This document shows positions 50,525 to 54,214 of a stretch of DNA of 64,000 nt, in pieces. Made by a program: the position numbers and the translations under genes. The stretch is from an uncultured Ignavibacteriales bacterium (GTDB taxonomy: Bacteria; Zixibacteria; MSB-5A5; GN15; JAAZOE01), in NCBI GenBank assembly GCA_964611355.1, contig CAZSYD010000004.1, forward strand, positions 9,034 to 73,033. Direction: 5' to 3'. Numbering within the stretch: position 1 is the first letter of the stretch; the number at the start of each line of letters is the position of its first letter. The notes under the pieces are model-generated. The model did no database searches and was not told where the DNA came from. It saw only the letters and a list, made by a program, of their open reading frames with translations.

Positions 50525-53383
50525 CTATTTCAGATAAATCATCTTCCGGACTGCGCTGAAATCGGCCGTTTGCAATTTATAGAAATATATCCCCGAAGCC
50601 ATTTCGCGGCCACGGTAATCGGTACCGTCCCAAGCGGTGTGGTATGAACCGGCTGGCAGAAACTCATCCAGCAAAGTGGCCACCCGCTGACCCAGGATAT
50701 TATAAACCTCTATGGCAGCCGAGCCGGCACGCTTCAAGTCAAACAAAATACTTGTCCGGTTGTTAAACGGGTTCGGAAAATTTTGACCGAGGGAGAAGCT
50801 GGCGGGAAGGTTGTCTCTCCCCCGGTCGTCAACGCGGGTAGGACTGCTTATTTCAAGGCCGCCGCATTCCAGAAACGGCAGGCAATATATGCTATCGCCC
50901 GACTCGAGATAGAAACTGTCTTCGTCGGCGATACTAAAAAACGTTATTCCGGTAATGGAATCGTTGACTGTGCCATAGATATCGGCCAGATGATGCGGAC
51001 CCGCACGGATCGGCGTTTCCAGTGAATCGACCGGGATTTCCAAAATGAAGGTATTCGCTCCGTTATCAATCGTGGCCAGGACCCTCTCTTTCAGATCGCC
51101 TTCCGATGGAGGCAATATCGAATCAACCGTATGCATTGCGCCATCATAGGCAAACTTTAGATATCCCCGGCGGATGCTATTTTGATTATGCAGATAAAGC
51201 TGCACCTGCACAAACTCACCAAGCTCTGCCGCCGCAAGGGGAATCAAAACCGTATCGGGCGGATAAAGGTCAACTATAATGGGGACATGAATAGGGTTGT
51301 TGAAAGCGGTCGAATCCTGGATTCTTATACTGCCCCTGTATTGGCCGGGGATAAGCGCAGCCGTGGCTATGCTGCATGATACGAAATCATAATCGGCGCC
51401 CGAAGAGGAAACCAGAGAAAGCCACGAAGCGTCGCTGCCTGCCTGCCAGTGCGAAACGTTTCCGCCCATGTTTAAGATTTGAATCGAATCCGAGACCGTC
51501 TCGCCCCTTATCAGGAAATGATAAATACTATCGGGTTGAGCGGCCAGGTACGGGATATTTGACTGCAAATCGAGGATAACCTTTAATGATTCCGGGCCGT
51601 TTAGAGCGCCGCTGTCGGAGATTATCGCAAACGCTTCATATTCACGGGACAACAGCGAGGTTATGTCGCAGCCGACCGAAATTAATTCACCGGCGGCGCC
51701 GTTTGTTTTATCAACTGTCAGCCAATCGGCGGTTTTGGTCAGAGTCCAGTCCAGTGTCCCCGTGCCGGCGTTGAGGACGGTAAATATCTGATCGTTTGGC
51801 GACCCGATCTCAATCAATGCCCGAAAGCCGACGGAATCAGGTTCAAGTTCTATCAGAGGGCCGGTAATCGTCAGAACCACCGGTATCATGGCCGTCGAAT
51901 CATTATGAGTCAGGTTAATCAGCGTAATCCTTCCCTGATGTATCCCGTAATCGAGCGAATCGGAATTCAGCGTCACATAAAAGCTGTCGGGCGTGGCGCC
52001 AGTTGTTTTGGAAAGCTCGATCCAGCCCGCCTCGGCGGGCTCAGGCTGGAGCCGGTAATCAAGCTCTCCGTATCCGGCATTTTGAAGAGTTACCCTGAAC
52101 GGTTCGAGGTCTGGGTCAAACATATCTTTGGAATAATCTATCCTCCCCGGCGAGGCCAGCAGGGCGGGATCGTTATACCTGATTATTCTTCCGTAAATAT
52201 CGTAGTTGCCGTTGCGATTATCGGCCCATACCAGATAAAGGTCATATCCGTCGATGGCTACGTCCGGAAGAAGTTGCTTTCCGCTTTTCTCGGAATTTAC
52301 CTGGAAATTATTATCACGCAGGCAGCCATTATATTCGATCATCTGGCCGACAACGTTCCAATCCCCTCCCGCCGAGTCGGACCAAACAATACAGGCATTA
52401 CCCATTCGGTCAGCCGCCACTTTCGGGTCGCGCTGGGAAGCCGACGTACCGTCCTGATTGATAATAAAATTATCTCCAAGGCGATTCAGTTCGGAATCGA
52501 ATCTCTGGCAGAAAATATCGGAATTGGCCGGGTAGCTGCCGTTTCGCCAGTCGGTCCAGACCACGTAAATCACACCATTGCCACCGATCGCTGCCGAGGG
52601 GAACTTCTGCCTGGTTGCTGTCGTCCCATGATTGACGACTATATTTTCTCCGACCGGATTTCCGGCGGAGTCAAATTTCTGCAAATAGATATCATCGTCC
52701 CCGTTGCGACCATCGTACCAAGTAACCACAAACCATCCTTCGGGAGACAGCGCCACCTCCGGTTCATGCTGCGGCGAGGTAGAATAGTCGTCGTTTACCC
52801 TGATGTTAACCCCCAGAGGACTGCCGTTATTATCCAGCGACTGGACAAAAACATCCCAGTTGCGATAACGAAGATCCGTCCAGGCAACTATCGTTTTCCC
52901 CCAGCCGGCGGCTCCGACAGCCGGCGACTGGTGGCTGGAATCTGGCGGCTCGATGGTTATATTACGGTTTATTCCCACAAAACCGGCGCTATCGAGCTTT
53001 TGATAATAGATATCAGGATCAAACGGGTAGGTGCCGTTCCGGTAATCTTTCCAGACGGCGAAATAATTTCCATACCAGTCAGACGATAAATCGGGCTCAA
53101 ACTGCCAGGCAGTTATATCGTCATCGTTTACCCGGAAGTTATCGCCTATCGGAACAGAAGCGGAATCATACAACTGGCAAAAAATATCGCCGTTTCCATT
53201 ACGGCGATCAACCCATACGACCGCAAACTTCCCTCCCAAACCAACGGCTACGGCGGGGTTATTCTGATCGGAGAACGAAAAATCGGACGTAATAAGAAAA
53301 TCACCTTCTTGGAGAACACCCGCATCGGCGCCCGAAGCGAAAAGTAAAAATACAAACACCACTGATAGGTCCAGCCGCAACAT
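50525..53383 (-). CDS. Large T9SS-sorted surface protein: 7 propeller-like repeats, Ig/BACON-like domains, a cohesin-like module and a T9SS CTD
   Basis: Signal peptide. Seven ~50-aa repeats P.VA....G.F.VVW.D.RNG..DI(F/Y).Q.(F/Y)D..G.P.G.NF.VN. Repeated W(I/L)..(S/D)...G modules. GEFVQVQLYLHNQNSIRRGYLKFAYDGAMHTVDSI is cohesin-like. The C-terminus reads LGQNFPNPFNNRTSILF...GIYFYKLQ...RKMIYLK. Confidence 0.7.
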   Translation of the reverse strand: MLRLDLSVVFVFLLFASGADAGVLQEGDFLITSDFSFSDQNNPAVAVGLGGKFAVVWVDRRNGNGDIFCQLYDSASVPIGDNFRVNDDDITAWQFEPDLSSDWYGNYFAVWKDYRNGTYPFDPDIYYQKLDSAGFVGINRNITIEPPDSSHQSPAVGAAGWGKTIVAWTDLRYRNWDVFVQSLDNNGSPLGVNIRVNDDYSTSPQHEPEVALSPEGWFVVTWYDGRNGDDDIYLQKFDSAGNPVGENIVVNHGTTATRQKFPSAAIGGNGVIYVVWTDWRNGSYPANSDIFCQRFDSELNRLGDNFIINQDGTSASQRDPKVAADRMGNACIVWSDSAGGDWNVVGQMIEYNGCLRDNNFQVNSEKSGKQLLPDVAIDGYDLYLVWADNRNGNYDIYGRIIRYNDPALLASPGRIDYSKDMFDPDLEPFRVTLQNAGYGELDYRLQPEPAEAGWIELSKTTGATPDSFYVTLNSDSLDYGIHQGRITLINLTHNDSTAMIPVVLTITGPLIELEPDSVGFRALIEIGSPNDQIFTVLNAGTGTLDWTLTKTADWLTVDKTNGAAGELISVGCDITSLLSREYEAFAIISDSGALNGPESLKVILDLQSNIPYLAAQPDSIYHFLIRGETVSDSIQILNMGGNVSHWQAGSDASWLSLVSSSGADYDFVSCSIATAALIPGQYRGSIRIQDSTAFNNPIHVPIIVDLYPPDTVLIPLAAAELGEFVQVQLYLHNQNSIRRGYLKFAYDGAMHTVDSILPPSEGDLKERVLATIDNGANTFILEIPVDSLETPIRAGPHHLADIYGTVNDSITGITFFSIADEDSFYLESGDSIYCLPFLECGGLEISSPTRVDDRGRDNLPASFSLGQNFPNPFNNRTSILFDLKRAGSAAIEVYNILGQRVATLLDEFLPAGSYHTAWDGTDYRGREMASGIYFYKLQTADFSAVRKMIYLK

Positions 53384-53499
53384 AACTCAAAACAATTATG
53401 CAAAACGCCTGCCCAAACTCAGACACGCACCGGGCATATATAACCTGCCTTTTATCAGCAGGTTTAGGGCATCCCGGTAATACCCGCCGGAAATGACAG

Positions 53500-53571
53500 A
53501 AAAAAACCGGAATTCTCATCCGGCTGAGTGGGGAAAAATATTCGCTTCTCGGGGAGGGTATTCCCTCCCCG
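53500..53571 (-). terminator. Two hairpins downstream of the HU/micro-ORF unit, the second with a T7 tract
   Basis: Minus strand: CGGGGAGGG-aata-CCCTCCCCG (53550-53571), then CCGGA-tgagaat-TCCGG + TTTTTTT (53500-53523). Confidence 0.5.
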
Positions 53572-53601
53572 AAAATTCCATTTTATCGAATAACTTGGAG
53601 A

Positions 53602-53697
53602 CTAAACCTTTTTCTTTTTATGTCTATCACGCCGTTTCCGTTTTTTCCGTTTGTGCGTTTTGATTTTTTGTCGTTTGCGTTTCTTTCCGCTGGGCAT
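53602..53697 (-). CDS. 31-aa hyper-basic micro-protein, bS22 / AURKAIP1-COX24-like small ribosomal protein candidate
   Basis: Below the ORF-track size cutoff. AGGAGG lies 6 nt upstream of the ATG (53697). Translation: MPSGKKRKRQKIKTHKRKKRKRRDRHKKKKV-stop. It starts 30 nt after the HU stop on the same strand. Confidence 0.6.
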   Translation of the reverse strand: MPSGKKRKRQKIKTHKRKKRKRRDRHKKKKV

Positions 53698-53727
53698 TCA
53701 GCCTCCTGCTCCATTCAACAGATGTGG

Positions 53728-54012
53728 TTATATCGGGAGTTTCGTAATCAGGCTCTTGAACTCATTAGATGGCTTAAAAACCGGAACCTTGCGATCAGGA
53801 ACGGGAACCACCTCGCCGGTACGAGGATTTCTCGCCTTCCGAGCCTTTCTTAATTTGATTTTGAAAGTTCCAAAACCGCGGATTTCGATGTTATGTCCCT
53901 CTTCCAAAGACTTTTTCACAGTCGTCAGAAAGTTGTCGACCACCACGGCTACGTCTGTTCGAGTTAACCCTGTCTTTTCAGCCACTTTTTCGACCAGATC
54001 AGCCTTGGTCAT
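53728..54012 (-). CDS. HU/IHF family nucleoid-associated DNA-binding protein
   Basis: MTKADLVEKVAEKTGLTRTDVAVVVDNFL...IRGFGTFKIK...ARNPRTGE.V.VP....VFKPS. GGGAGGAGG SD. Confidence 0.9.
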   Translation of the reverse strand: MTKADLVEKVAEKTGLTRTDVAVVVDNFLTTVKKSLEEGHNIEIRGFGTFKIKLRKARKARNPRTGEVVPVPDRKVPVFKPSNEFKSLITKLPI

Positions 54013-54214
54013 CTTGTCCTCCTCCCAAAAACAATCCCTTTTTCCAAGTTTTTCAAAATAATATATCTTTCCTGCCTGCGCAACTACTTTTATTGCAAAG
54101 AGCTAAACAATTTTAACCGTCATCCTTGCATTCCTGTAGCAACGACCAAAAGCATCACGACGCTTTAATCCCAAGCCTGCGCGGTCATGTCAAGCCGCTT
54201 GTCAGGCTTTCCCT

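Follow-up and report, generated by a model that had tools for sequence, protein, structure and literature searches.

The hup locus

The window (the whole 64,000-nucleotide stretch of DNA that was analysed) carries on its minus strand a gene for a DNA-binding protein of the HU/IHF family and, just downstream, a very short open reading frame that is called bS22 here for reasons given below (Table 1). The HU protein scores under the cut-offs of all the NCBIfam IHF and HU equivalog models. Its gene has a Shine-Dalgarno sequence, GGAGGAGG, at 54025..54018, which is 5 nt ahead of the ATG. The next gene on the same strand begins at 53383, and this agrees with the 344-nt gap after the HU gene given in a preliminary description of this DNA. 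That description placed a clean minus-strand ORF in the gap, and an uninterrupted ATG-to-TAG frame is indeed present there. It also gave 22 of the 31 residues of the product as K, R, or H. The composition count is the same (13 K, 7 R, and 2 H), and the peptide has a mass of about 4 kDa and a computed pI of 12.0. The consensus AGGAGG that it placed 6 nt before the ATG is real (53707..53702), but the spacing is not. Read directly, the motif is followed by CTGA and then by the ATG, which makes the spacer 4 nt.

Table 1. Features of the hup locus in the window, and positions of bS22 genes on the contigs behind database representatives of the family.
Feature	Position	Strand	Description
HU/IHF-family DNA-binding protein gene	53728..54012	minus	94 aa; Pfam PF00216 Bac_DNA_binding, E = 6.2e-33; first cistron
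Intercistronic spacer	53698..53727	minus	30 nt from HU stop to bS22 ATG; holds AGGAGG; read from the sequence
bS22 gene (proposed)	53602..53697	minus	ATG start, 31 codons plus TAG; product MPSGKKRKRQKIKTHKRKKRKRRDRHKKKKV
GC-rich 13-bp hairpin	53546..53575	minus	UUUUCGGGGAGGG-AAUA-CCCUCCCCGAGAA; 27 nt past bS22 stop; without an immediate U-tract
Intrinsic-terminator-like hairpin	53500..53525	minus	7 pairs plus T7; terminator scan and fold; stem 53525..53505, T7 53506..53500
HU-bS22 pair	L081:57-461		AT-rich, without Shine-Dalgarno, F. johnsoniae-type peptide
DapF - HU - bS22 - PilZ	L082-85 (L082:2212-2650)		Gene order as listed
HU-bS22 pair	L087:61-499		TTG start
HU - bS22	L089:2202-2653		SSB and MutY on other strand; AT-rich, without Shine-Dalgarno, F. 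johnsoniae-type peptide
bS22 beside nuoE/F	L086:2558-2647		No adjoining HU
bS22 beside carbamoyltransferase	L088:280-375		No adjoining HU

How might this ORF be transcribed? A scan for terminators and promoters finds no site resembling either in the 30-nt spacer between the two cistrons. Beyond the ORF, the preliminary description had noticed two hairpins, one with a T7 tract, and a terminator scan and RNA folding recover both of them. The fold of 53480..53610 has a minimum free energy of -42.9 kcal/mol (z = -2.3). The GC-rich hairpin nearer to the ORF is likely to be a 3' stabiliser or a first terminator element, and the hairpin with the T7 tract is the probable end of the transcript. In related loci a terminator-like site is found within 200 nt on the 3' side of the ORF in 22 of 35 cases. 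Because the spacer lacks any terminator- or promoter-like site, the adjacency of the two genes is conserved (see below) and a terminator follows bS22, we infer that HU and bS22 form a co-transcribed two-gene unit.

A search for sigma-70 consensus promoters upstream of HU gave no match. In alignment A3 many relatives share a weak, semi-conserved motif some 100 nt ahead of the HU start, made up of TATC(T/A)T, a spacer of variable length, and CAAAGGnTTA (loci L003-L006, L011, L012, L015, L016, L020, and L022). This could be a promoter or leader element. It is poorly retained in the window (about 54110..54140) and in L001. On the 3' side, many relatives (L002-L007, L012, L015, and L016) share a recurring terminator-like hairpin, AATGCCC(N9-12)GGGCATT with a T-run, about 135-156 nt past the bS22 stop. 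The 3' region of about 140 nt between bS22 and this hairpin is poorly conserved. The window has two different hairpins in its place, and the sequence at about 53441..53410 (TGCCC...GGGCA), just before the next gene, is perhaps a degraded copy of the one in the relatives.

The gene that follows the terminator (50525..53383, minus strand) encodes a 952-aa protein with BACON_2, FlgD-Ig, and type IX secretion sorting (Por_Secre_tail) domains. Its position is kept in many relatives at only 35-54% identity, and such a protein fits an FCB-group organism. Elsewhere in the window, an FMN riboswitch (RF00050, 28267..28391, minus strand; 100 bits, gathering score 66) is the sole Rfam family over threshold, and no tRNA genes were found in the window.

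Identity of the micro-ORF

The preliminary description had assigned the ORF to the ribosomal protein bS22, and this assignment is borne out by full-length matches to chains in solved ribosomes. A phmmer search with the peptide against all PDB chains matched exactly three sequences. One is the "30S ribosomal protein S22" of Flavobacterium johnsoniae (7JIL chain 5), which is identical at 24 of 30 positions (80%; E = 1.2e-7). The others are a chain of the Porphyromonas gingivalis 70S ribosome (9i5v_10, from 9I5V/9I5X; 22 of 30 identical, E = 6.3e-6) and bS22 of Borrelia burgdorferi (8fmw_V, that is 8FMW chain V; 19 of 28 identical, E = 1.8e-5). All three alignments begin at Met1, are ungapped, and extend over the whole length.

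A peptide of such biased composition could match any polybasic sequence. For this reason 20,000 shuffles of the peptide were compared with each of the three PDB chains. The Smith-Waterman scores observed are 110-129, whereas the shuffles average 45-49 and peak at 77-85 (z = 11.3-14.5); none of the 20,000 comes up to the observed score. Ungapped identities are 19-24, against shuffle means of 6-7. The non-basic landmarks M1, P2, G4, T14, H15, and H26 are all in register with the PDB chains. A profile built from 18 family members lifts these matches to E values of 5.7e-15 to 1.2e-12. The residues that are invariant in 18 aligned sequences, the three PDB chains included, are M1, G4, K6-R7-K8, K11, T14-H15-K16-R17, K19, and R25-H26-K27-K28, and the window peptide has every one of them.

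A search against the bS22/COX24_C family, which the preliminary description had proposed, gave a divided answer. The bS22 chains in the PDB were matched as above, but a Pfam scan of the peptide returned no COX24_C (PF08213) match even at E values up to 10 (threshold 23 bits). Likewise, no NCBIfam model matches the peptide or the validated bS22 proteins. In a control Pfam scan, the validated bS22 proteins of F. johnsoniae and Borrelia were also unmatched, and that of P. gingivalis reached only 11.8 bits (E = 0.24) on COX24_C, where the cut-off is 23. These null results are therefore uninformative, because validated bS22 proteins fail the same scans.

A bS22 gene of the Bacteroidetes/spirochaete type should be a stand-alone ORF of some 28-31 codons with an extremely basic product (pI above 12), and the window ORF agrees with this in both size and basicity. 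The protein has been described as one helix with terminal lysines (PMC13000457), and a single-sequence AlphaFold2 model of the window peptide agrees with this (one helix, residues 4-30, mean pLDDT 93), although such a prediction is generic for short basic peptides and is weak evidence. In view of the full-length matches, this ORF of a Zixibacteria-like genome very probably encodes bS22, a protein of the small ribosomal subunit, in its Bacteroidetes/spirochaete sequence type.

Conservation and selection in relatives

To what extent is the ORF kept in other genomes? Eighty loci were taken from one-genome-per-species contigs. They were picked by the HU protein alone, and the choice was thus blind to the micro-ORF. 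The closest loci are labelled Zixibacteria or Zixiibacteriota; some carry the label Ignavibacteria and are possibly mislabelled. In the 32 Zixibacteria-type loci the HU protein is 78-97% identical to that of the window. With every filter disabled, a family HMM was then applied to 13,045 stop-to-stop segments from the window and the 80 loci. It found one match each in the window, in all 32 loci with an HU protein at least 78% identical, and in two more distant loci, L044 (labelled Gemmatimonadota) and L064 (labelled Krumholzibacteriota). Every match lies shortly 3' of HU and on its strand, and no other bS22-like match was found among these segments. Since the HMM matched only the window ORF and the syntenic ORF in relatives, the ORF is not a product of chance.

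The scan also recovered the peptide of L027, which has a K7A substitution. No frameshifted or stop-disrupted copies were seen in the 32 loci. The preliminary description had named a broken ORF amid preserved surroundings in close relatives as the sign of a false call, and the finding is the reverse: all 32 loci have the ORF, and in eleven aligned loci its flanks share only 20-28% identity. The distance from the HU stop to the bS22 ATG is 2-77 nt in those Zixibacteria-type loci where it can be measured, and most relatives have a GGAGG-like Shine-Dalgarno sequence 4 nt ahead of the bS22 start. The syntenic neighbourhood runs LysM/SLT - SppA - HU - bS22 - T9SS-tail protein. The proteins that flank the pair are, in most loci, only about 35-57% identical to those of the window (SppA and LysM/SLT mostly at about 50% or less), and bS22 peptides are 74-90% identical in the aligned relatives.

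Codon-level analysis covered 34 sequences, namely 33 loci and the window, with L027 outside the set. They comprise 33 distinct DNA sequences that encode only 18 peptides. The minor-allele fraction at codon positions 1, 2, and 3 is 0.09, 0.04, and 0.43, and identity by codon position within the ORF is 0.92, 0.98, and 0.52. Of the codon differences, 7,448 are synonymous and 1,705 are not, a synonymous share of 81%, against roughly 20% expected for random single-base changes. In eleven aligned loci the pairwise DNA identity is high in the ORF (0.81) and its Shine-Dalgarno sequence (0.82) and low in the rest of the spacer (0.20) and past the stop codon (0.28). Synonymous-biased conservation downstream of hup in related genomes, for which the preliminary description had suggested looking, is thus present. 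The bS22 ORF is evolving as a protein-coding gene under strong purifying selection.

What if the conservation acted on the RNA and not on a peptide? In this scenario the ORF would be a chance open frame in the A-rich 3' UTR of the HU mRNA, which would, for example, stabilise the message or regulate it. The ORF is indeed short, rich in purines, and followed by hairpins. Moreover, other frames are often open as well, the sense +1 frame in 25 of 34 relatives and antisense frame 0 in 31 of 34. The antisense frame stays open for a simple reason: AAR, CGN, and AGR codons never give a stop codon when complemented. The variation described above, which is concentrated at the third positions of exactly the bS22 frame and is mostly synonymous, already contradicts the scenario. 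The start codon, stop position, and Shine-Dalgarno sequence are also kept while the flanks have diverged, and no Rfam family matches at the bS22 locus. We give the idea of a chance frame almost no credence.

A related question is whether the real gene is one of the ORFs that overlap bS22. There are three such frames, a minus-strand ORF of 43 aa (53583..53714) and two plus-strand ORFs (53620..53853 and 53651..54061), and all do exist as open frames. None of them has a Pfam match. The wobble pattern fits the bS22 frame only, and a codon-aligned antisense frame would vary at first positions, where most changes alter the protein. In 9 of 34 relatives the sense +1 frame is not open. The plus-strand ORFs lie antisense to bS22 and to the HU gene, the latter a clear Pfam match itself (E = 6e-33), and they were rejected as genes; the preliminary description had already dismissed the plus-strand frames at 53620-54061 as antisense artefacts, and we concur. 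That any of the three frames is the true gene is next to inconceivable, and a bS22 gene remains the preferred reading of the ORF.

Annotation status

Genes of this kind have largely escaped notice. The exact window peptide and two close relatives are absent from a collection of 15 billion proteins, which fits either missed gene calls or a length cut-off in the collection. A look-up of contigs encoding the peptide likewise gave no recorded gene with this product. An exhaustive phmmer search over 1.84 billion representatives gave only six matches at E <= 0.001, all of 38-55 aa and all longer than the bare ORF. The extra length consists of spurious N- or C-terminal extensions or, in one case, of a partial 5' duplication. 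The preliminary description was therefore right in saying that gene callers miss such genes. The bare 30-codon gene is essentially never reported by gene callers, and in Borrelia it was missed in the same way.

The six proteins (P0001-P0006) have some peculiarities of their own. Some start at upstream codons, and that of L089 reads past the usual stop position. The recorded product of the gene call L081:372-488 is not given by table 11 translation. In L086:2501-2647 a second copy of the first 16 codons, joined by a 3-residue linker, precedes what is probably the true start.

One consequence is that the ribosomal-protein inventories of metagenome-assembled genomes are systematically short by bS22. 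The conserved place after hup offers a simple anchor for locating these genes. As recently as 2026, bS22 was attributed to Mycobacteria and Bacteroidia (PMC13000457); Borrelia had been added in 2023, in a paper that predicted more such discoveries (PMC10618245). A clear orthologue under selection in Zixibacteria, together with the few loci labelled Gemmatimonadota or Krumholzibacteriota, widens the known range. Neither bS22 in Zixibacteria nor its linkage to HU is mentioned in the searchable literature, as far as we found. Modestly new, then, are the presence of bS22 in Zixibacteria and the recurrence of its pairing with HU in other lineages. The family itself and its routine omission by gene finders are already known, and the understanding of bS22 is unchanged.

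HU-bS22 pairing outside the close relatives

The contigs behind the six database representatives extend the pairing beyond Zixibacteria. An HU-bS22 pair is present in 4 of 6 independent cases (Table 1). The HU proteins of L081 and L089 are only 38-42% identical to that of the window, and the range across pairs outside Zixibacteria is 38-62%. In 46 of 48 distant loci (L033-L080, mostly Gemmatimonadota, with HU proteins at most 71% identical) no bS22-like ORF lies within 3 kb of HU; only L044 and L064 have one. The dicistron is found in 32 Zixibacteria-type loci, in L044 and L064, in contigs that resemble Flavobacterium, and in others whose flanking genes are unrelated.

Does the pairing reflect a shared function? 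Perhaps the polycationic peptide acts with HU on DNA, as a nucleoid-associated or condensing partner, instead of or besides any role in the ribosome. A peptide in which about 70% of residues are K, R, or H would bind any nucleic acid, and the two genes are adjacent in 32 of 32 Zixibacteria-type loci and again in most of the independent representatives (L081, L082-85, L087, and L089), which come from other lineages and neighbourhoods. Several observations do not fit this idea. The peptide has 80% full-length identity to a protein that has been physically seen inside the F. johnsoniae 70S ribosome, and bS22 occurs without an adjoining HU in L086 and L088. Furthermore, adjacency alone is no sign of shared function, because both genes are short, highly expressed, and housekeeping. 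A DNA-directed partner of HU is accordingly a very improbable identity for the peptide, and a ribosomal bS22 is the reading followed here.

The evidence shows linkage of hup and bS22, not functional coupling. One might speculate that the dicistron is an ancient, selectively maintained unit of the FCB group, which either links production of the main nucleoid protein to a ribosomal component that is not universal, or points to a second role of the peptide, directed at DNA, alongside HU. We consider this unlikely.

A proposed place in the ribosome

With the ORF, its homology to structurally validated bS22 chains, the purifying selection on its protein, and its conserved position after hup as starting points, a sequence of events can be proposed. 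First, hup and bS22 would be transcribed into one mRNA, in which bS22 is the second cistron. bS22 would be translated from its own strong Shine-Dalgarno sequence (AGGAGG, then 4 nt, then ATG), and the transcript would end at the hairpin/T7 terminator, 76-102 nt past the bS22 stop. Second, the 4-kDa product, with a pI of about 12, would fold as a single alpha-helix. Third, this helix would enter the h44/h45 pocket of 16S rRNA beside the decoding centre, with the lysines at its C-terminus reaching 23S rRNA (H68/H70) and adding a contact between the subunits.

The placement in the pocket is modelled on published work on the location and role of bS22 in the ribosome (PMC7797042; PMC10618245; PMC12123416). 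In the published structures bS22 is one helix wedged between h44 and h45 of 16S rRNA, adjoining the decoding centre. It makes an extra inter-subunit contact, with H70 of 23S rRNA in F. johnsoniae and P. gingivalis and with H68 in Borrelia. Because the window protein is homologous to bS22 in the solved F. johnsoniae, P. gingivalis, and Borrelia ribosomes, it presumably occupies the same pocket of its host ribosome. The F. johnsoniae protein is seen in 70S complexes and lost from isolated 30S subunits (PMC13000457). In Mycobacterium smegmatis bS22 is dispensable for growth and lowers sensitivity to aminoglycosides (PMC10081302). bS22, which lies alongside the decoding centre, is not a universal ribosomal protein.

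Comparison with known bS22 systems

The most distant comparison is with actinobacterial bS22 (M. smegmatis MSMEG_0945; 5O5J/5O61) and mS38/AURKAIP1/Cox24 (PF08213, DUF1713). These resemble the window protein in size and charge, and according to published structures both occupy the same h44/h45 pocket (PMC7797042; PMC10618245). The P. gingivalis homologue is even deposited in the PDB as "AURKAIP1/COX24 domain-containing protein". The preliminary description had drawn mycobacterial bS22 and the mitochondrial proteins into one family with the window peptide. By sequence the peptide belongs with the Bacteroidetes/Borrelia type, and similarity to the mycobacterial and mS38 branch is not detectable. 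Aligned with M. smegmatis bS22, the window peptide has a Smith-Waterman score of 47, where shuffles average 43.2 (z = 0.70) and 24% of them do no worse. F. johnsoniae bS22 scores equally low against the mycobacterial protein (z = 0.5). The family profile retrieves neither mycobacterial bS22 nor mS38 from the PDB. Conversely, mycobacterial bS22 (its sequence confirmed in PDB 5O5J, 5O61, and others) touches mS38 weakly (E = 0.1-6) and retrieves no chain of the Bacteroidetes type. There are two bacterial bS22 sequence types, and their equivalence rests on published structural superposition (PMC7797042), not on detectable sequence homology. Convergence has been suggested between bS22 and its eukaryotic counterparts mS38 and eL41 (PMC12123416).

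The Borrelia burgdorferi gene (bb0822; 8FMW chain V) is closer. Like the window gene it was unannotated, and it was found by a translated nucleotide search (PMC10618245). Its product was the single Borrelia ribosomal protein that mass spectrometry failed to detect (PMC10618245); trypsin destroys peptides so rich in K and R. It has a GUG start and a modelled chain of 28 aa, whereas the window gene has an ATG with a Shine-Dalgarno sequence.

The nearest known relatives are the bS22 proteins of Bacteroidota (F. johnsoniae Fjoh_1533, 7JIL chain 5; P. gingivalis 9I5V/9I5X). They fall in the same length class of 30-31 aa and share with the window peptide the pattern MPxGKKRKR.K..THKRKKR.R..RHKKK. 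The window peptide differs from them by substitutions at positions 10, 12, 13, 21, 23, and 24, which are variable in the family, and by one extra C-terminal residue (V31), and its host is Zixibacteria-like. On the contigs with F. johnsoniae-type peptides (L081 and L089), bS22 directly follows HU, as it does in the window. However, the window gene has a strong, conserved Shine-Dalgarno sequence, whereas those contigs are A-rich upstream of bS22 and have none. By a crude first-start heuristic, 13 of 41 long ORFs in the window have a Shine-Dalgarno-like 4-mer at -18..-4, against a background of 7.5%. The lineage of the window thus appears to use Shine-Dalgarno sequences, unlike the contigs with F. 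johnsoniae-type peptides. The canonical Shine-Dalgarno sequences on both HU and bS22, and the enrichment of such motifs ahead of long ORFs in the window, are in line with a published argument on Bacteroidia ribosomes, namely that bS22 has nothing to do with how their 16S anti-Shine-Dalgarno sequence is sequestered.
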